55,093 nucleotides of DNA from a bacterium BMS3Bbin09 (GCA_002897915.1 BDTS01000098.1:1-55093); one strand, 5' to 3'; numbered from the stretch's first letter, positions 2,611-55,093 are shown. The notes: generated by a model from the sequence alone, not told the origin. Made by a program: numbers and translations.

Positions 2611-3927
2611 ATGAAATACTATTTGAAGACTTTTGGTTGTCAAATGAACGTGCACGATTCTGAAAAGATAGCTGGTATTTTTTCTGAAGTCGGACACGAA
2701 AAATCTGTAGATACAGGCGATGCTGATGTGATCGTCCTGAATACCTGCAGCATAAGGGAAAAGGCCGAGCATAAGTTCTACAGTGATCTCGGAAGACTGA
2801 AGAAGGCCAAGACCGATAATCCAAACCTCAAGATCGCTGTTGCCGGATGTATAGCGCAGCAGGAGGGCGAAAAGCTATTTAAGAGGTTCCCTTATATTGA
2901 TTTCGTCTTCGGACCCAATAATATTGATAGCCTGCAAAAATTGATAAACGGAGAATTACTCTCAACTCTCAAGCATCAACAGTCAACATTTATCGATGTC
3001 AATCCGGATTACCCCTCGATGATCTTTCCAATGAAGAGGGCAGGGGGGGTGAAGGCATGGGTCTCTATTATGTATGGATGTGACAATTTCTGCGCCTACT
3101 GTGTTGTTCCGTACACCCGGGGCAGGGAGCGATCCAGGCCGTCCGCAGACATTTACAGGGAGGCTGAGAAGCTTGCGGCAGATGGCTTTAAGGAGATAAA
3201 CCTCCTTGGACAGAATGTGAACTCTTACGGCAGGAAACTTGACGAAGAGATAGACTTTCCTGAACTTTTATCCAAGCTGCATGAAATAGATGGAATAGAG
3301 AGGATCAGGTTCGTTACATCGCATCCAAAGGACTTTTCGGAAAAACTGATAAAAGCGATGAAGGACCTCCCGAAAGTTTGCAATCATATGCATCTGCCTA
3401 TTCAAGCCGGTTCAGATAAGGTGCTTAGCCTGATGAACAGGAAATATACCTATAATGAATACAAAGAAAAGATCGACCTGCTCAAGAGCAATGTCCCTGA
3501 CATCGCCATAACAACAGATATTATAGTGGGCTTCCCGGGTGAGACGGACGAGGATTTCAGACTTACGATGAAGGCGCTCTCGGAGATCGAATATGATGGT
3601 GCCTTTGCCTTTAAATATTCGAGGAGGCCGGGCACAAAGGCCCTTGAACTTCCCGACCATGTAGATGAAGATATAAAATCAGAGAGGCTTGCCAGTGTAC
3701 AGAAACTACAGGAAACGATCTCTTATAAAAAGAATAAGGAACTTGAAGGAAAAACACTTGAGATATTGGTTGAGGGTTCGAGTGATACCAATGAAGAAAA
3801 ACTGACAGGCAGGACAACGACCAATAAGATAGTGAATTATCATGGGGAGAGGTTGGATATAGGGAATATGGTGAATATCAGGATACTAGAGGCAAAGCAG
3901 TATTCGCTGTACGGAGAGAAAATATAA
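2611..3927 (+). CDS. miaB: tRNA-2-methylthio-N6-dimethylallyladenosine synthase (radical SAM methylthiotransferase)
   Basis: N-terminal YLKTFGCQMNVHDSE, radical SAM CDNFCAYCVVP, C-terminal TRAM domain. Confidence 0.9.
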   Translation: MKYYLKTFGCQMNVHDSEKIAGIFSEVGHEKSVDTGDADVIVLNTCSIREKAEHKFYSDLGRLKKAKTDNPNLKIAVAGCIAQQEGEKLFKRFPYIDFVFGPNNIDSLQKLINGELLSTLKHQQSTFIDVNPDYPSMIFPMKRAGGVKAWVSIMYGCDNFCAYCVVPYTRGRERSRPSADIYREAEKLAADGFKEINLLGQNVNSYGRKLDEEIDFPELLSKLHEIDGIERIRFVTSHPKDFSEKLIKAMKDLPKVCNHMHLPIQAGSDKVLSLMNRKYTYNEYKEKIDLLKSNVPDIAITTDIIVGFPGETDEDFRLTMKALSEIEYDGAFAFKYSRRPGTKALELPDHVDEDIKSERLASVQKLQETISYKKNKELEGKTLEILVEGSSDTNEEKLTGRTTTNKIVNYHGERLDIGNMVNIRILEAKQYSLYGEKI

Positions 3928-13276: not shown

Positions 13277-13351
13277 TGGTAGGCACGAGTGGTTTCGAAC
13301 CACCGACCTCTTCCGTGTCAGGGAAGCGCTCTCCCCCTGAGCTACGCGCCT
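13277..13351 (-). tRNA. tRNA-Val (anticodon GAC), CCA encoded
   Basis: Manual cloverleaf: AGGCGCG-TA-GCTC-AGGGGGA-GAGC-G-CTTCC-CTGACAC-GGAAG-AGGTC-GGTGG-TTCGAAA-CCACT-CGTGCCT-A-CCA. Confidence 0.9.
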
Positions 13352-14214: not shown

Positions 14215-15173
14215 TATAATACAAGCCCTATGTCTTTTATCATCTTGAGGTCGTCTTCGGGCCTTCTCCCCGTTGTTGTCAGGTAATTGCCGAGCAGCAG
14301 GCCGTCTGCACCGGCGTTAAATATAAGTGAGTTCATGTCTCCGAGTGTCAGGCTCCTGCCCCCGCATACTCTTACCTCAGACTTCGGGAGAATGAGCCTG
14401 TAGATAGCGATGATCTTCAGGGCCTCGAGCGGATCAAGCAGCTCATTATTACCAAGCGGTGTGCCAGTTACAGGTGTGAAGAAATTGATCGGGACAGAGT
14501 CAACGCCGATCTCCTTCAGAGCAAAGGCCATGTCGATACGGTCCTCCCATGATTCACCAAGGCCGAATATCCCGCCGCTGCATATTGAGAGTCCCTCTGA
14601 CTTAACGGCCCCAATGGTCTTGATCTTGTCCCGGTAAGTATGGGTGGTGCATATCTCACTGAAAAAGGCCTCGGAGGTCTCGAGGTTGTGGTGGTATCTG
14701 TTAAGACCCGCGTCCTTAAGCTGTCTCAGTTCCTGTGCATCGAGCATGCCGAGTGTGGCACAGGGCAGGAATCCCATTTCCCTCAATTCGGATACAAAGT
14801 CGCATATCTCGTCCAGTTCCACAGCTGAAGGCTTCTTGCCGCTCGTCACAACACAGAAGCGCTTGACACCGTACTTCTTTGATACAGCCGCTGCTTCGAG
14901 TATCTTTTTCTTATTCATGAGAGGATAAATACTGGTGTCGGTCTTGCTGTGCGCTGACTGGGCGCAGAAGGAGCAGTCCTCCGGGCACGCGCCGGATTTG
15001 GCGTTTATGATCGAGCAAAGATCGACAATATTGCCCCTGTGTTTGTCCCTTATCCTGTTCGCAAGAGCAAAGAGATCGTATGTCTCAGCGCCTGTTTTCT
15101 TTGAAAAAATAAGGGCGGAATCCCTGTCGATCCCCTGTTCGTATTTTGTTGCATCCTTCTCTGTAATTGGCAT
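14214..15173 (-). CDS. bioB: Biotin synthase
   Basis: Radical SAM CPEDCSFCAQS, YHHNLETS, CSGGIFGLGES. Confidence 0.95.
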   Translation of the reverse strand: MPITEKDATKYEQGIDRDSALIFSKKTGAETYDLFALANRIRDKHRGNIVDLCSIINAKSGACPEDCSFCAQSAHSKTDTSIYPLMNKKKILEAAAVSKKYGVKRFCVVTSGKKPSAVELDEICDFVSELREMGFLPCATLGMLDAQELRQLKDAGLNRYHHNLETSEAFFSEICTTHTYRDKIKTIGAVKSEGLSICSGGIFGLGESWEDRIDMAFALKEIGVDSVPINFFTPVTGTPLGNNELLDPLEALKIIAIYRLILPKSEVRVCGGRSLTLGDMNSLIFNAGADGLLLGNYLTTTGRRPEDDLKMIKDIGLVL

Positions 15174-15183
15174 GGGTTATTAT

Positions 15184-15212
15184 TATACCACGGGCATAAG
15201 TTTCGTTTGAAT
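15184..15212 (-). repeat. Repeat family copy A (short form): TATACCACGGGCATAAGTTTCGTTTGAAT on the + strand
   Basis: The first 18 nt are identical to copies C and D. The minus strand reads CTTATGCCCGTGGTATAATaataacccATG, where the ATG is the bioB start. Confidence 0.7.
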
Positions 15213-15279
15213 AATTGAAAGGCAGACGTTGAGTTTACATTGTAATTACGTGTGGATATGTATGATTAGTTAATGTAGA

Positions 15280-25813: not shown

Positions 25814-25871
25814 ATAAAGCCGAATTAAGCGGTGTGTAATCCGCTTCAATGAGACTTATGCCCGTGGTATA
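25814..25871 (+). repeat. Repeat family copy B (long form, opposite orientation to the other copies)
   Basis: ATAAAGCCGAATTAAGCGGtgtgtaatCCGCTTCAATGAGACTTATGCCCGTGGTATA. Flanks are identical to the reverse complements of copies C and D. Only the hairpin loop differs. Confidence 0.85.
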
Positions 25872-25878
25872 ATAATTC

Positions 25879-26031
25879 GTGGCCAAGAGAATAATTAAGA
25901 AAAAGACGGCAGTCAAGAAGATATCATCTGAGAAAGATATATCTGTCATCTGCATTAATAGAGACTGTAAATTAAGGAAAAAGAAAAGCTGCAAGGGCTT
26001 TGAGGGATGTCCGGGGTTTAAGGGTAGGTAA
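25879..26031 (+). CDS. Possible 50-aa basic Cys-rich protein (C-x4-C-x7-C-x5-C-P), GTG start, below ORF-track cutoff
   Basis: Hand translation: (V/M)AKRIIKKKTAVKKISSEKDISVICINRDCKLRKKKSCKGFEGCPGFKGR*. Starts 5 nt after the TGGTATAAT of repeat copy B. The antisense 60-aa ORF in the track looks like a hydrophobic shadow. Confidence 0.4.
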   Translation: MAKRIIKKKTAVKKISSEKDISVICINRDCKLRKKKSCKGFEGCPGFKGR

Positions 26032-44231: not shown

Positions 44232-44816
44232 ATGCCAACAATAGGACTCACAGGTAATTTCGGGATGGGTAAGAGCGCTGTTCTCAAGATGTTCGGCAAA
44301 ATGGGGGCCTTCACTTACGACATCGACAGCTTTGTCCATTCCATTCTTAAAAGGCCCGCGATAATTAAAAGTATAGTCAATGCCCTTGGGAAGAGTGTTA
44401 TTTCAAAGCGCTCTTTGAACAAAAAACGTATGGCAGGGCTGATCTTCAATGACCCTGAAAAAAGAAGGGCCTTGGAAAAAATTATACATCCCGAGGTCCT
44501 GAAATTATTGAAGCAGGCTGAAGCGAAGATATTGAAAAAAGATCCTAAGGCCATTATCGTCTTTGAGGTCCCCTTACTCTTCGAAGCAGGATACGAAAAA
44601 CATTTTGATAAAACAGTGGTTGTTTACACCAACAGGAAAAATGCGATCAAAAGACTTGTTCGAAAGGGTATCTCAAAGAATGAATCTTTTAGCAGGATGC
44701 GCGCCCAGATGCCGATCAGCATCAAATTGAAACGGTCCGACTATTCGATCAATAATAACTACAGCCTTAAGAGAACTGAAAAAAGGGTGAAGCGTATCTT
44801 GTTTGATCTAAAATAA
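44232..44816 (+). CDS. coaE: Dephospho-CoA kinase
   Basis: IGLTGNFGMGKS P-loop, VPLLFEAG. Confidence 0.9.
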   Translation: MPTIGLTGNFGMGKSAVLKMFGKMGAFTYDIDSFVHSILKRPAIIKSIVNALGKSVISKRSLNKKRMAGLIFNDPEKRRALEKIIHPEVLKLLKQAEAKILKKDPKAIIVFEVPLLFEAGYEKHFDKTVVVYTNRKNAIKRLVRKGISKNESFSRMRAQMPISIKLKRSDYSINNNYSLKRTEKRVKRILFDLK

Positions 44817-47195
44817 AACTATTGTTACGGCCTCTCCGCCCTCTTCTTGATTACCTTTTCTTGCTTCTCTTACGAGTGGATGGTCCTTTAAAAAATCTCG
44901 TATCGCGGCTGCCAGCCTGCCGGTCCCTATCCCGTGAATTATCTTTACATGACCAAGGCCGGACATGCAGACGTCATTTAAATAACGTTCGATGACAGAG
45001 ATCGTCGGATCGATCCTCTTTCCTATAACATTCAGTTCAGGCGGAACTTCCATGTCTACATGTCCGGTATCAACACTATATGATCGTTCGGCCTTATCTT
45101 TTTTTAGCCTGCCCTCTCCTTTCAGCGGCTCGGAGAGATCTGCAAAGGAGATCATTATCTCTTTGCCATCTGCATCAACCTTGCATTTCTTTGCCCTGTT
45201 GTCAATGAAACTTACCGTTCCGTGAGTTCCGAGCGCGGCAACATAGACCCGTTCCCCGGTTATGATCTCTTTGAGGGCAATGACCTTTTCAGGGGTATGC
45301 GCAACAAGATCCCTTTTAATTTCTTTATGCTTTTTATCAAGGTCCTTTATAACTGCGGCTGTTTCAGGCAACTTTGCCTTCTTCATTTTCTTTATGAGAT
45401 CATGCGCCTCTATCTTTGTCTTTCTCAGCACCTCTTCAGCATCTGCAAGTGCCCTTGCCATAACATCCTGTTGCTTTGATCTGAGGTTCGAAAGCTCTTC
45501 CTTCAGGCGCTGCTTTTCCTGTTCAGCATCTTGTCTGAGATCTTCAGCTTCCTTAAGTCTGTCAACGATCTCCGCTTTTTGGTGTTTGAGGTCTCTTATA
45601 AGAGACTCTATCCTGGCGCCCTCTCCTGTCAGGCTTCCCCTTGCCTCGTTAATGATATCTTTATCCAGCCCGAGTGATTCTGCTATCTCAAAGGCATGAG
45701 AGGTTCCGGGCTCCCCGATGACGAGTTTGTAGGTTGGTTTAATACTCGATATCCCGTTAAGGGTGATCTCTTTCATTTCCATGGAGCTGTTGATAAGGCC
45801 CGGCTCTGAATGCGCAAATGCCTTTAGCGTTCCGAGATGAGTTGATACAACCGTGAGCGCACCCTTTTCCTGTAATCTGCGAAGGATCGCGCAAGAGAGT
45901 GCGCCGCCCTGATCAGGATCAGTGCCTGTGCCGAGTTCATCTATCAGGACAAGTGAACCCTTCTTGCTCTGCCTGAGTATTTCGGAGATCCTGGTTATAT
46001 GCGCTGAAAATGTCGATAGGTTATTTTCAATGGATTGCTCATCGCCTATATCAGCGAATATATTCTCAAGCATGGGCACAGTCGTGCCGGAACCTGCGGG
46101 TACATGCATTCCCGAAAGCGCCATGAGATTGATCGCGCCGATCGTCTTGAGAGCAACTGTCTTGCCCCCTGCGTTCAAGCCGGTAATTACTATCGAAGAA
46201 TTTCCACTGCCCATCTCTATATCGAGAGGGACAAGCTCCTCCTCCCTTTTTTCCCTGCCGAGCGTCTTCCAGAGAACCGGGTGACGTCCATTACATATCT
46301 TCAGGCAGCCCTTTGAATTGATCTCAGGAGAAGACATCTTCATCTGTTCAGAAAAACGAGCGATGGCCCATAACACGTCTATCTCCACGACCTTATAATA
46401 GTCATCACCTATCCCGGAACGTTCCTCCCTCAAAAGCGATGTGATCGCCCTGAGTATCCTGTACTCCTCAAGCTTCTCTTCCACCCGCAATGACTCAAGC
46501 TCATTCCCGAGGTGCTGAATAGAATAAGGTTCGATATAAGCTGTTTCACCGGTATTTGAAATATCATGCAGGACACCGGGGACACTGCCTTTAAAATCTA
46601 TCTTCACCGGTATCACAAGTCTGTTATTGCGCTCTGCCACAAAAAAATCCTGAAGGTGCGGCGTCACCTCTTTCTCCTTCAGTATCCCGTCGAGCATCAC
46701 CTTTATATTATTCTCACCTGAACTGATTCCCCGGCGTATAACAGCAAGCTTCTTTGATGCTGTATCACGTACCCTGCCCTCATTGTTTATCGATCGTTCT
46801 ATTGTTTTTTTGATCTCTGGGTGTGTCGTTATATCAGAGATAATATTTGAGAGGCCGGAACATAACGGATCATTTTCAAAGCCCTTCAGGTTGAGCGCGG
46901 AATCAAAGAGTGGTAGAAATGACCTGAGCTGGAACGCGTCGAGCACAACGTCTTCGGGCTTTATTCTCTGCAAAAGAAGTGTCAGCTCATCAAAATGCTC
47001 TATGCCCGATAAACGCCCTTCAGACAATAGCGTTCTACATTCCGATATGAGAGAACTCTTCAGCGCGATCTCTTCCGGGTTCCTCAGAGGCGCTGTATTA
47101 ATGACCTTTTCCCTGCCCGGTGCCGTGACCGCAAATGTCCCGGCCATTTCGACTATCTTGTTGAATTCAAGGATCTGTAGAGTATGTTTATCCAT
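44808..47195 (-). CDS. mutS2: Endonuclease MutS2 (MutS ATPase domain plus C-terminal Smr domain)
   Basis: ITGLNAGGKT Walker A, DELGTGTDP, Smr C-terminus IIHGIGTGRL. The MDKHTLQILEFNKI start is typical of MutS2. In-frame alternative starts lie at 47213 and 47249. Confidence 0.85.
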   Translation of the reverse strand: MDKHTLQILEFNKIVEMAGTFAVTAPGREKVINTAPLRNPEEIALKSSLISECRTLLSEGRLSGIEHFDELTLLLQRIKPEDVVLDAFQLRSFLPLFDSALNLKGFENDPLCSGLSNIISDITTHPEIKKTIERSINNEGRVRDTASKKLAVIRRGISSGENNIKVMLDGILKEKEVTPHLQDFFVAERNNRLVIPVKIDFKGSVPGVLHDISNTGETAYIEPYSIQHLGNELESLRVEEKLEEYRILRAITSLLREERSGIGDDYYKVVEIDVLWAIARFSEQMKMSSPEINSKGCLKICNGRHPVLWKTLGREKREEELVPLDIEMGSGNSSIVITGLNAGGKTVALKTIGAINLMALSGMHVPAGSGTTVPMLENIFADIGDEQSIENNLSTFSAHITRISEILRQSKKGSLVLIDELGTGTDPDQGGALSCAILRRLQEKGALTVVSTHLGTLKAFAHSEPGLINSSMEMKEITLNGISSIKPTYKLVIGEPGTSHAFEIAESLGLDKDIINEARGSLTGEGARIESLIRDLKHQKAEIVDRLKEAEDLRQDAEQEKQRLKEELSNLRSKQQDVMARALADAEEVLRKTKIEAHDLIKKMKKAKLPETAAVIKDLDKKHKEIKRDLVAHTPEKVIALKEIITGERVYVAALGTHGTVSFIDNRAKKCKVDADGKEIMISFADLSEPLKGEGRLKKDKAERSYSVDTGHVDMEVPPELNVIGKRIDPTISVIERYLNDVCMSGLGHVKIIHGIGTGRLAAAIRDFLKDHPLVREARKGNQEEGGEAVTIVLF

Positions 47196-47199
47196 AGGA

Positions 47200-47222
47200 T
47201 ATACCAAAGGCATAAGTTTCGT
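47200..47222 (-). repeat. Repeat family copy E (degenerate short form) at the 5' end of mutS2
   Basis: TATACCAaaGGCATAAGTTTCGT compared with copy A TATACCAcgGGCATAAGTTTCGT (21 of 23 identical). Confidence 0.5.
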
Positions 47223-47332
47223 AAGAACAGATGAAAACTCCAATTTCATCTGTTTAACTCAGCTATAAAATCATATCATAAGTCGATGATTTGTGGTGAA
47301 GGGGGAATGAGGATGTACGCTGAAAGACGTAA

Positions 47333-49330: not shown

Positions 49331-49363
49331 TTCTGATCTCCTCTTTGTTAATTGATGCCCTTT

Positions 49364-49422
49364 TATACCACGGGCATAAGTCTCATTGAAGCGATGCTAT
49401 GCACCGCTTAATTCGGCTTTAT
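49364..49422 (-). repeat. Repeat family copy C (long form)
   Basis: + strand: TATACCACGGGCATAAGTCTCATTGAAGCGatgctatgcacCGCTTAATTCGGCTTTAT. Abuts or overlaps the stop codon of the PfkB kinase gene. Confidence 0.85.
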
Positions 49423-53125: not shown

Positions 53126-54154
53126 TTACTTATCAAAGTGGCATTTCTTGCATAATTCGAACACATCGTTAACTTCAAAGGCCCACAAATGCGGGTAGTT
53201 TGACGCATGAGGATTATGGCAGCTGGCACATGTGAGCTCCTTGCCGATCCGAACAGGATCCTTTCGCCCCTTGGTCGGGTGCCCTTTTTTAAACATGGTG
53301 TCTCCGAGCACATGCTGACCAGTTGCCTTTTCAGCATGGCAGTTCACGCACAGGTCCCAGGTAGATTTGAAAAGATTAAAAGCGTAATTGGACGAGTGCG
53401 GACTGTGGCAAATAGTACATTTCCCCACGTTTACAGGCCCGTGGATATATTTTTTTGAATTCCATTCTTTCTTCTGCTCAACATGACATCCATAGCAGAC
53501 ATCCTTGACAGGCTTCCTGACAGAGTATCTTATAGCAGCATTATTATCATGACAGCTAAGACAGCTCCAGACAGATGCCGGTCCGTGAACGTAAGGTTTT
53601 TTTGTTATACTTTTGTGACAGGAATAACATGTTGAAGTAGCGGCAAATATCTGTTCGCTGCTGAATTTTTCGGAAGCGAAAGTACTTGGACTGATAGGTT
53701 TTTTATCATATCCGCTTACTTCCAGTACGTGGCATTTTCTGCACTCAGGATGAGCCTCCATATGAAAACCAGATATTTTGAAACTGAGGGGCGGTTTTCT
53801 GTATTCACCTACCAAATCTGACCTGCGGAAAACATTTCGGACAAATGTGGCCACAAGTGTCTCCCCCTTGAATGCCGAAACTTCGACCGTGCTTGTTCCG
53901 AGTTTGTTTAATATGACCGAAAAACATTCAAACCCTAAGTCAGGGACAATCTCTTTTCTGTCCTTACCGTCTACAGTGACTTTGATCAAGTCAACGGCCC
54001 CTTTAGTCACTTCGAGTGAGAGATTCAGGATATCATATTCGATCACTGTCCTGTCAGGCGGGGTATGAAGAACAATCACTTCCTGACCTGCGTTGGCCGC
54101 TATGGAAGTGATCAGCAAATAAGATACGATATATACCACGGGCATAAGTCTCAT
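53126..54154 (-). CDS. Exported octahaem c-type cytochrome
   Basis: Eight CxxCH motifs (CRKCH, CYSCH, CLSCH, CYGCH, CTICH, CVNCH, CASCH, CKKCH). Signal peptide MRLMPVVYIVSYLLITSIAANA/GQ if started at 54154. An in-frame GTG alternative lies at 54211. Confidence 0.8.
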   Translation of the reverse strand: MRLMPVVYIVSYLLITSIAANAGQEVIVLHTPPDRTVIEYDILNLSLEVTKGAVDLIKVTVDGKDRKEIVPDLGFECFSVILNKLGTSTVEVSAFKGETLVATFVRNVFRRSDLVGEYRKPPLSFKISGFHMEAHPECRKCHVLEVSGYDKKPISPSTFASEKFSSEQIFAATSTCYSCHKSITKKPYVHGPASVWSCLSCHDNNAAIRYSVRKPVKDVCYGCHVEQKKEWNSKKYIHGPVNVGKCTICHSPHSSNYAFNLFKSTWDLCVNCHAEKATGQHVLGDTMFKKGHPTKGRKDPVRIGKELTCASCHNPHASNYPHLWAFEVNDVFELCKKCHFDK

Positions 54155-54187
54155 TGAAGCTGATGCTACGCACTGCTTAATTCGGCT
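54132..54187 (-). repeat. Repeat family copy D (long form), overlapping the 5' end of the octahaem cytochrome ORF
   Basis: + strand: TATACCACGGGCATAAGTCTCATTGAAGCtgatgctacgcactGCTTAATTCGGCT. Confidence 0.85.
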
Positions 54188-54201
54188 AAATATGAGTTTT
54201 C

Positions 54202-55093
54202 TTATTTGCACTTAGAAATAGATGAAGGCAGTATCTGTTTATGTATTATCTTTTCGATCGCCTTTTTATACATTTCAATGGATTTGTCCTTTTCACCTTT
54301 GAGCTCGTATGCCTTACCCAATTCATAGTAGGTCATCTGAGCATAAGGGTTCGCGATGGCGGCATCATTAAGTATTTCGATGGCTTTGTCGAGCTCCCCT
54401 TTCATTACAAATGCTCCTCCGAGGCCTGTCTTTGCATCATGCGAATGAGGGTCAAGCTCGAGCGCCTTGTTGAATGTTGTGAGCGCGCTGTCGGGATCAT
54501 CCATTTCGAGATACAGGAACCCGAGGAGTATGTGACTCTTCAGCATATCGGGTTTGACCTCAATGGACTTCCTGACGCTGTTTACGGCAAGTTCTATCAT
54601 CCCGTTCTCCGTAAATTTCATGGCCAGATTATAAAGTCTCGTTGACTCAAGATGTGTCTTGTCCGCTTTAACATTGTGCGGCGACAGCATATCGTTCAAC
54701 TTGCTCTCATCGATCTCTCCGAGTGCCTTCTTAATGTATCCCTCAAAGAGTTTTTTGAATGTAAGGGGATGGCTCGGTATGCTGTGGGTAATGATACCCT
54801 CTTTATCAACGATGACTGTCGTCGGATATACCCTGATGCCGTAGTCGCTGTAGAACTGTCTCCCGTAATCTACGACCACCGGAAAATTTATCTTGTTGTC
54901 GGCGGTCATACTTTTTGCCAGGTCCAGCCTGTCGTTCCCGGCAACTATAGTGATGACCCTGATATTTTTTCCTTTGAGCTTTTTCATGACTTCAAACGCG
55001 TCCTTTAAGGCAAGGAGTGACCGTTTATGTTCTGTTCTCCAATATATAAGCGCTGTTACCTTTCCGTCGTTCTTGCTTAAAGACAGGTGTTCT
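54202..55093 (-). CDS. TlpA/redoxin-like domain (CxxC lost) fused to TPR repeats; 5' end beyond the window
   Basis: The frame stays open upstream of the ATG at 54987 to the window edge: ...GKVTALIYWRTEHKRSLLALKDAF... aligns with the FWATWCxxC region of TlpA, but with H and S in place of the cysteines. PTTVIVDKEG follows, then TPR-like repeats. Confidence 0.7.
   Translation of the reverse strand, partial: EHLSLSKNDGKVTALIYWRTEHKRSLLALKDAFEVMKKLKGKNIRVITIVAGNDRLDLAKSMTADNKINFPVVVDYGRQFYSDYGIRVYPTTVIVDKEGIITHSIPSHPLTFKKLFEGYIKKALGEIDESKLNDMLSPHNVKADKTHLESTRLYNLAMKFTENGMIELAVNSVRKSIEVKPDMLKSHILLGFLYLEMDDPDSALTTFNKALELDPHSHDAKTGLGGAFVMKGELDKAIEILNDAAIANPYAQMTYYELGKAYELKGEKDKSIEMYKKAIEKIIHKQILPSSISKCK

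Follow-up and report, generated by a model that had tools for sequence, protein, structure and literature searches.

A short repeat, found in five copies within a 55,093-nucleotide (nt) stretch of DNA from the bacterium BMS3Bbin09 (GCA_002897915.1, BDTS01000098.1:1-55093; hereafter, as a whole, the window), very probably represents a family of non-autonomous mobile elements, similar in the broad sense to MITEs (miniature inverted-repeat transposable elements), that has expanded within a clade of the Nitrospirota and that has no dedicated regulatory role. The element is 55 to 68 nt in length, possesses no coding capacity, and has moved, with precise boundaries, to sites between genes, within genes, and within other copies of itself; it carries two conserved hairpins, is inserted next to a three-base target, and regenerates a TAA at its junctions. 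A first-pass annotation of the window had described these five copies (lettered A to E) as always lying at the 5' end of a gene that runs in the same direction, and had offered several explanations for them: a portable promoter or operator cassette, a mobile element similar to MITEs or to the palindrome-associated transposable elements (PATEs), or a shared regulatory leader. The mobile-element explanation was borne out by the occurrence of the element in at least 120 metagenome contigs, by the presence of tandem and nested copies, and by three empty sites in related organisms.

Mobility was demonstrated both by comparison of orthologous loci and by the arrangement of copies relative to one another. 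A 20-kilobase (kb) contig from a related organism (L127), in which the gene order corresponds to that of the window and a multihaem cytochrome is 81% identical, contains no element copy across its 20 kb (nhmmer, E <= 10), and displays exact empty sites for copies C and D. Empty sites for copy A were found in three additional relatives (L130, L131 and L132, with BioB proteins that are 92% and 86% identical), and a 97% relative carries the same truncated copy A at the same bioB site. In five contigs, copies of the element lie head to tail, in tandem and with a common junction, and nested copies were found to sit at defined points of the copy that hosts them. At approximately ten loci with unrelated flanks the same composite was observed, in which a reverse-oriented element of one of the two main subfamilies (subfamily 1, in a variant form that begins TACCC-NNN-GGGCA) is inserted at ATTTCA^TCTATT (the caret marking the point of insertion) within the stem of an element of the other (subfamily 2). 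Because that composite recurs at loci with such unrelated surroundings, the nested pair appears to spread as one unit.

The extent of the family was examined by scanning metagenome contigs with TATACCANNGGCATAAGTYTC, which matched at least 120 contigs; the family statistics given below rest on the matches listed in that scan. A profile search of the related contigs yielded 201 element matches (nhmmer) on 121 related contigs and the window, with 120 of those matches being full length. An 18-mer scan of species-representative genomes produced six matches, one of which was a true relative, located in a metagenome-assembled genome (MAG) labelled Nitrospira sp.; that copy is the closest relative of copy E, with flanks that match those of E and a compensated change in its stem. 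The other matches of the 18-mer scan were set aside as chance. The protein homologues of genes in the window carry the names Nitrospirae or Nitrospirota, which identifies the host clade as Nitrospirota, and the genes that flank copies in the related contigs are diverse housekeeping genes. No element match was found in plasmid and phage sequences (blastn) or in Rfam (none at the gathering threshold, and none at E <= 1 around copies E and C), and 17 of 17 matches in viral contigs were rejected as chance matches that lacked both the flanks and the remainder of the element. The sole Rfam match in the window is a tRNA gene (13280-13351, minus strand; gathering threshold, 62.7 bits). Searches of published full text returned no paper containing any of four element sub-sequences, and no paper was found in the literature on Nitrospirae together with miniature inverted-repeat elements. 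The family is best filed as an undescribed one of a known sort, the small mobile repeats of bacteria that are non-autonomous, and is notable for regenerating its target.

Alignment of approximately 140 instances resolved the two main subfamilies, in which both ends are common (TACC-ANN-GGCATAAGT ... AAYTCRGCTWTA) and the interiors are different. Subfamily 1 reads TACCAnnGGCATAAGTCTCATTGAAGCGG-loop-CCGCTTAATTCGGCTWTA, and includes copies B, C and D of the window; subfamily 2 reads TACCAnnGGCATAAGTTTCGTAMGAATAGATGAAAT-loop-ATTTCACTATTCAACTCAGCTWTA, and includes copy E (complete) and copy A (left part). A third subfamily, which has the small hairpin and the TTTA end in common with the others but a different long hairpin (TACCCAAAGGGCATAACAATGTGTAGAAGCAGAA...TTCTGCTTAACACAAGTTTA), was found in two contigs (L048, ~257-318; L090, ~3050-3110), where it sits nested within a subfamily-2 copy. 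In a separate contig (L105), two subfamily-1 copies (70-128 and 295-353) lie in inverted orientation with approximately 166 base pairs (bp) between them and with near-identical left flanks, an arrangement that may correspond to a small inverted duplication or to an invertible segment.

When read along the strand that begins with TACC, the element extends from TACC to GCTWTA. A small stem-loop (TACC-ANN-GGCA) occupies its first 11 bases, the only two variable bases of which lie in the loop; a variant of that hairpin (TACCC-NNN-GGGCA) contains one additional C:G pair, and thus a compensated change. A conserved TAA follows at positions 12-14 of the element, complementary both to the TTA of the target and to that at the 3' terminus, and is in turn followed by a long imperfect hairpin with outer pairs AAGTY / RGCTT, in which the Y/R outer pair covaries between the subfamilies (C-G versus T-A). 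The inner stems have been wholly exchanged, and are complementary nonetheless, in six of the contigs; this compensation was read from folds of individual copies and from four well-aligned pairs, the MAFFT/RNAalifold alignment of the variable hairpin being poor. The 3' end of the element reads AAYTCRGCT-WTA. Its tips are not inverted repeats: the left tip, TACCACGGGCAT, is unmatched at the right tip (...GCTWTA), and complementarity between the two sides begins approximately 12 nt inward. The first-pass description of a hairpin with a variable loop and conserved stem pairing agrees with the sequences and folds of the long copies B, C and D; its neighbor, described there as an operator-like dyad of 7-3-7 geometry, has the behavior of a stem-loop at the terminus, the loop of which is free to vary.

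The site at which the element inserts is short and asymmetric. Positions -3 to -1 of the left flank are T in 81%, T in 92% and A in 96% of copies, in a contig set that was seeded with TATACCA, which leaves position -3 free and biases positions -2 and -1. A TA was found at the left flank in 144 of 161 copies (under a scan pattern that forced TA at that position), with right ends that read WTA; the element terminates in TTA in 104 copies and in ATA in 47, and the base that follows (position +1) is T in 75%. Insertion accordingly occurs directly 3' of TTA, with a target consensus of TTA^T(A). The TTA or ATA terminus causes both junctions to read TAA on the opposite strand, and head-to-tail arrays arise because the element's own 3' end mimics its target. 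Two classes of nested insertion, for which the sequence of the target is known, favor insertion without any duplication (CATTGA^[TACCC...GCTTTA]^AGCGG and ATTTCA^[TACCC...GGCTTTA]^TCTATT), and at least nine independent copies are preceded by a flank other than TA (TTG, TAA, TCA, TGA, AAG or GTC) and yet end in TTA.

Within the window, a search with the 21-mer TATACCACGGGCATAAGTYTC (at most three mismatches) recovered all five of the copies reported in the first-pass annotation, at 15184 (plus strand), 47200 (plus, two mismatches), 49364 (plus), 54132 (plus) and 25851-25871 (minus), and zero matches in 100 dinucleotide-preserving shuffles of the same DNA. Copies B and C carry the distal arm, CCGCTTAATTCGGCTTTAT, as does copy D with three mismatches; a relaxed nhmmer search of the window added neither copies nor fragments to these five. 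Copies A and E had both been classed as short forms, a description that is appropriate for A, which is the truncated left part of a subfamily-2 element, but not for E, which is a complete 66-nt member of that subfamily with a different internal hairpin. The downstream genes are, as had been noted, unrelated in function.

Copy D (54134..54190, plus strand; subfamily 1, 57 nt or 19 codons) had been thought to point into the start of a cytochrome open reading frame (ORF), and is actually located inside it: the copy interrupts the multihaem cytochrome gene (53126..54211, minus strand, from its original start) in frame after codon 7, in the signal peptide, and does not act there as a promoter. The empty site in L127 reads ATG CAA ATA AGA GTA CTC ATA^TAT ATT GTA, and the filled site in the window reads GTG CAA ATA AGA AAA CTC ATA [57 nt] TAT ATC GTA; the N-termini of the orthologues read MQIRVLIYIVLY..., and that of the window reads VQIRKLI-FSRIKQCVASASMRLMPVV-YIVSY. 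The original start codon (54209-54211), a GTG in the window where L127 has an ATG, still overlaps the end and stop codon of the upstream gene, and the public gene call begins instead at an ATG derived from the element (MRLMPVV...). The 'mini-ORF' that had been assigned to the repeat (MRLMPVV*) is, at this site, the reading frame of the cytochrome running through the element; as a feature of the repeat it is an accident of the target, its TAA stop being flanking target DNA that lies outside of the element. Judged from the sequence, the cytochrome most likely keeps an elongated signal peptide. An alternative genetic code, or read-through of TAA, was considered for the four mini-ORFs that are in frame with a downstream gene, and was rejected on the basis of the orthologues, which identify copy D as an insertion; the BioB orthologues, all of which are 319 amino acids (aa) in length and match the ATG at 15173, also speak against TAA read-through. 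In two related contigs (L120, 69-1967; L106, 380-1942), longest-ORF calls of other genes pass in frame through copies of the element (for example, MRLMPVVYYVPMDKSK...), and automatic start-codon calls beside elements are therefore often wrong.

Copy C (49366..49421, plus strand; a full, 56-nt member of subfamily 1, TACC...GGCTTTA) lies between pfkB and a gene of 79 aa, precisely between the last sense codon of pfkB and its TAA. The terminal TTA of the element (49419-49421), when read on the minus strand, provides the present pfkB stop codon, and the old TAA is found on the far side of the insertion. The empty site in L127 reads TCA^TAA-ATAGGAGATCAGAAATG, with a stop-to-start gap of 14 nt, versus 88 nt in the window. 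Approximately 20 additional nt, together with the TA target bases (49343..49365, no strand assigned), are found beside the TACC end of this copy. The additional bases (49343-49363) are absent from L127, contain AAAGGGCAT followed by CAATTAA, and resemble a degraded, oppositely oriented left end from this family, so that the AAAGGGCAT stretch may be the remnant of a second one.

Copy B (25815..25869, minus strand; a full, 55-nt member of subfamily 1) occupies a divergent region between a transketolase gene and a hypothetical 50-aa ORF, and its junction reads TATAAT, 5 nt before the GTG of that ORF. The ORF (25879-26031, plus strand) is rich in lysine and cysteine (VAKRIIKKK...CINRDCKLRKKKSCKGFEGCPGFKGR), overlaps the 3' end of a PHP-domain gene on the other strand, and has no Pfam match. 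Copy E (47202..47267, plus strand; full subfamily 2, 66 nt), the hairpin of which is formed by AACAGATGAAA / TTTCATCTGTT, lies with its TACC end 6 nt from the ATG of mutS2, and displays a junction that reads TATATC. In the window, mutS2 is found between coaE and a spoU-type methylase gene (44808-47267), and it is absent from that position in the syntenic L127 (16416-17553), which indicates that a rearrangement borders copy E, the copy being located at the mutS2-proximal edge of that difference.

The history of copy A (15186..15222, plus strand) involves both insertion and subsequent loss. The nhmmer match to this copy (15184-15222) takes in two flanking target bases before the TACC at 15186, and alignment with relatives demonstrated that its right half, along with the old -35 of the adjoining bioB gene, has since been deleted. 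In those relatives (L130, 2467-2503; L131, ~2465-2503) the ancestral bioB promoter reads TTGACA-17-AATAAT, corresponds to the consensus at 11 of 12 positions, and is located 5 nt before the ATG in the absence of a Shine-Dalgarno sequence, all of which suggests, from sequence, that the bioB transcript may be leaderless or nearly leaderless in this clade. In the window, the junction of copy A (GTGGTA|TAAT) creates TGnTATAAT with TTCAAA 18 nt upstream (10 of 12 matches, with the TG present), thereby forming a hybrid promoter-like site (15182..15211, minus strand) that comprises TTCAAA, an 18-nt spacer with TG, and TATAAT. The TTCAAA, the spacer and the first two bases of TATAAT are derived from the element, and the remaining TAAT was left from the ancestral -10; the bioB ATG at 15173 is found 8 nt downstream of that hybrid -10, again with no Shine-Dalgarno sequence. 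Copy A replaced a strong, near-consensus ancestral promoter, and left in its place a hybrid, predicted promoter that would plausibly now drive bioB.

The claim that every copy lies at the start of a gene of its own orientation is loosely correct for the five copies in the window, and incorrect for the family. Of approximately 106 scorable copies, 73 have the TACC end directed toward a gene's 5' end and 33 toward a 3' end (p = 1e-4), so that a bias toward gene starts is present and its universality is not; these counts were made on de-duplicated copies with crude longest-ORF gene calls. The TACC-end split is 33 to 12 between co-directional gene pairs, and the other (WTA) end is divided 50 to 55 between 5' and 3' ends. 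When the WTA end is directed toward the 3' end of a gene (58 copies), the ORF terminates within the element in 31 cases, 17 of them exactly at the terminal TTA. On the sense strand of a gene the target TTA^TA corresponds to TA^TAA, and so to a TAA stop codon as well as to the core of TATAAT. At stop codons and at -10 boxes the target is available in a single orientation, and sites of both kinds are restored by the element; from this we infer that the bias toward gene 5' ends would result mainly from an asymmetric target and from sites at which insertion is tolerated, rather than from any regulatory role. Insertion may, according to the site, land upon a TAA stop (copy C), between codons (copy D), or within a TATAAT-like -10 (copy A, GTGGTA + TAAT). 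Against that explanation, GC skew tracks the gene strand, such that an effect of the replication strand is inseparable from promoter selection as a cause of the bias.

The possibility that the element instead delivers a promoter, with an outward extended -10 (TGnTATAAn, accompanied by a weak -35) that is functional at most sites and has been selected there, as in the Correia elements of Neisseria, was judged to be somewhat unlikely. It draws upon the same orientation counts (five of five window copies with the TACC end toward a gene start, and the family-wide bias described above), upon left-end-only fragments that face gene 5' ends in seven of eight scored cases, upon the extended -10 that copy A forms where an ancestral promoter was destroyed, and upon the precedent of promoters in MITEs (PMC10969869). 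By construction, a TG-N-TATAA is also present at every junction. The last four bases of the '-10' that had been assigned to the repeat are flanking target, outside of it. Against a promoter cassette, copy D lies inside an ORF, copy C sits in an operon in which the ancestral gap was 14 nt, 31% of copies face the 3' ends of genes, and the orientation bias is also explained by the asymmetric target. About 27% of junctions across the family read TATAAT, which was not significantly enriched at 5'-facing copies (27%, versus 17% at 3'-facing copies, p = 0.44), the sixth position of the -10 is T in only some 30% of junctions, and TATAAA is commoner than TATAAT; no signal of selection for promoter activity was therefore visible in the junction statistics, the enrichment of TATAAT not being significant. 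Subfamily 2 mostly lacks a -35 match, and copies C (TATAAA), D (TATATA) and E (TATATC) were unflagged by a promoter consensus scan, which leaves an outward promoter plausible at copy A, perhaps at copy B, and unsustained as a general rule. A fixed signal that regulates in cis (an operator bound by a transcription factor, an attenuator or leader peptide, or a structured RNA common to a regulon) is a far less credible explanation still, and is most improbable. The 7-3-7 imperfect dyad, the short MRLMPVV ORF and the location of the window copies near gene starts had pointed toward it; however, close relatives, with proteins that are 81-92% identical, lack the element at the orthologous loci, one window copy is intragenic, others in the family are tandem or nested, roughly one third face gene 3' ends, the downstream genes are unrelated, the mini-ORF lacks a Shine-Dalgarno sequence, spans fewer codons in subfamily 2 and stops in target DNA, and no Rfam match was found. 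Integron attC sites were also considered and rejected, as the copies contain no GTTRRRY or RYYYAAC cores and their neighbors are syntenic housekeeping genes rather than cassettes; dif/Xer sites, CsoR-like operators and sigma-54 promoters were dropped, since their motifs do not match.

For a mobile element of this kind, the nature of the mobilizing enzyme can be addressed with less certainty. An enzyme that acts in trans upon folded single strands would mobilize the element in the peel-and-paste manner of the IS200/IS605 family, and the conserved TAA at positions 12-14 would then pair, in the manner of a guide, with the TTA of the target as well as with the one that closes the element at its 3' end. 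That class of enzyme is proposed tentatively, as a possibility that falls short of being probable, because the tips lack inverted repeats, the strands are asymmetric, the target is short, T-rich and one-sided, the element terminates at its 3' side in a target-like sequence, and insertion need not involve a duplication. Several observations weigh against it. Most copies are compatible both with an element that ends in TA without duplication and with a duplicated TA; one nested copy (L079) reads TGA...TGA, as duplication predicts; and the rates of deviation at the left flank and at the right end are alike (~10-12%). The fit to IS200/IS605 ends is poor, in that the element's hairpins differ from one another, with the left hairpin located at the very tip; the conserved TAA, lying 3' of the small hairpin loop, has a geometry unlike that of an IS200/IS605 guide; and the bases 5' of the foot of the large hairpin vary (GTAAG, GTACG, GTTTG and others) and do not form a conserved guide. 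No transposase was found beside any copy (ORFs next to left-end-only copies having been inspected), in the gene set of the window, in the 121 related contigs or in the viral contigs, and an all-against-all comparison of 420 contig ORFs revealed no recurrent protein cluster. The element is, at most, a candidate member of the IS200/IS605 family.

A MITE mobilized by a DDE transposase of the IS630/Tc1-mariner type, in which TA is duplicated and the element consists of two degenerate inverted repeats that form a hairpin, would account for the TA...TA around most copies, for nested insertions into GCG-TA-GC and AAT-TA-AG, for the TGA...TGA of L079, and for a left arm that complements the right arm out to TA-AAG, save for an insert of 10-12 nt. 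It is nonetheless an unlikely explanation: inverted repeats are missing from the tips (nothing at the right end corresponds to TACCACGGGCAT), the preferred target T-TA-T is not palindromic, two nested classes combine a left flank of CA or GA with a right end of TA, and no IS630-like gene was seen in the contigs inspected. The remainder of the probability, a share about as large as that given to the single-strand class, falls upon something else. Extragenic palindromes of the REP/REPIN type, spread by a RAYT (a domesticated transposase of the Y1 HUH class), are likewise short, abundant and mostly intergenic hairpins that occur in clusters and display a conserved 5' single-stranded motif; they are nevertheless an improbable identity for an element with precise boundaries and empty sites, with arrays that are direct and head to tail (the alternating orientation of REP arrays was not seen), and with insertions within ORFs and within one another, and copies were not seen to flank any RAYT-like gene. 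Returning to the single-strand model, the element might represent a minimal transposon of an undescribed kind, in which one TAA would serve as the sole guide, the junctions would systematically rebuild stop codons and -10 boxes, the element could thereby colonize the most constrained bases at the boundaries of genes, and copies would have been co-opted time and again as extended -10 promoters of leaderless genes in Nitrospirota; this more specific proposal is doubtful.

Comparison with described systems places the element near several of them, its behavior resembling that of the Correia and Rickettsia palindromic elements and its architecture that of minimal IS200/IS605 derivatives. Elements of the IS200/IS605 family transpose in a strand-specific manner, insert 3' of a tetra- or pentanucleotide, employ pairing between a guide and the cleavage site, and carry subterminal imperfect palindromes in place of terminal inverted repeats (PMC3597680), and PATEs are minimal derivatives of that family (PMC10055086). 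The element resembles PATEs in its lack of coding capacity and of terminal inverted repeats, its folded palindromes near the ends and its strand asymmetry (PMC3597680, PMC10055086), as well as in its insertion 3' of a short T-rich motif with no duplication needed, its target-like 3' end, and its subfamilies with common ends. It differs from them in being far smaller (55-68 nt), in the dissimilarity of its hairpins (the IS200/IS605 family, unlike the element, has similar hairpins at both ends), in a left hairpin that starts at the tip and includes target bases, in a target of just 3 nt, and in having no tnpA or tnpB partner that could be found and no room for an omega RNA. The REP/REPIN and RAYT systems share with it an abundance of short extragenic hairpins and a conserved single-stranded 5' motif, and both are thought to depend upon an HUH-type enzyme that acts on folded single strands; unlike them, the element displays precise boundaries, direct tandem arrays, nested insertions and a TTA target.

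A classical MITE is defined by terminal inverted repeats, which the element does not have. The Correia repeat-enclosed elements, which belong to Neisseria, are bounded by clear terminal inverted repeats of 26 bp and duplicate a TA. Similar to the element described here, they are small, abundant, mostly intergenic and often located just upstream of genes, with TA-rich junctions that can create a sigma-70-type promoter and with transcripts that fold into hairpins (PMC10969869). They are, however, 100-200 bp in length, whereas the present element is without inverted repeats at its tips and has an asymmetric TTA target. The Rickettsia palindromic elements are palindromic mobile repeats that are tolerated in frame within protein-coding genes (PMC10969869), as is copy D; those elements are approximately 150 bp in length and mostly intragenic, whereas here 3 of 120 full copies are intragenic.

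These findings bear upon the annotation of genomes and MAGs from Nitrospirota, in which such repeats break assemblies and can pass for regulatory motifs, and in which they shift predicted starts and stops: the cytochrome gene is called from an element-derived ATG, and pfkB ends on an element-derived TAA. They also illustrate how a target of three bases, when the end of the element matches it, permits insertion upon stop codons, between codons and in -10 boxes with little damage. The bioB locus presents a case of promoter turnover, in which a near-consensus promoter was lost and a predicted extended -10, built by the element, was gained. If the mobilizing enzyme were to be identified, the very small size of the element and the unusual geometry of its ends could extend what is known of single-strand transposition.

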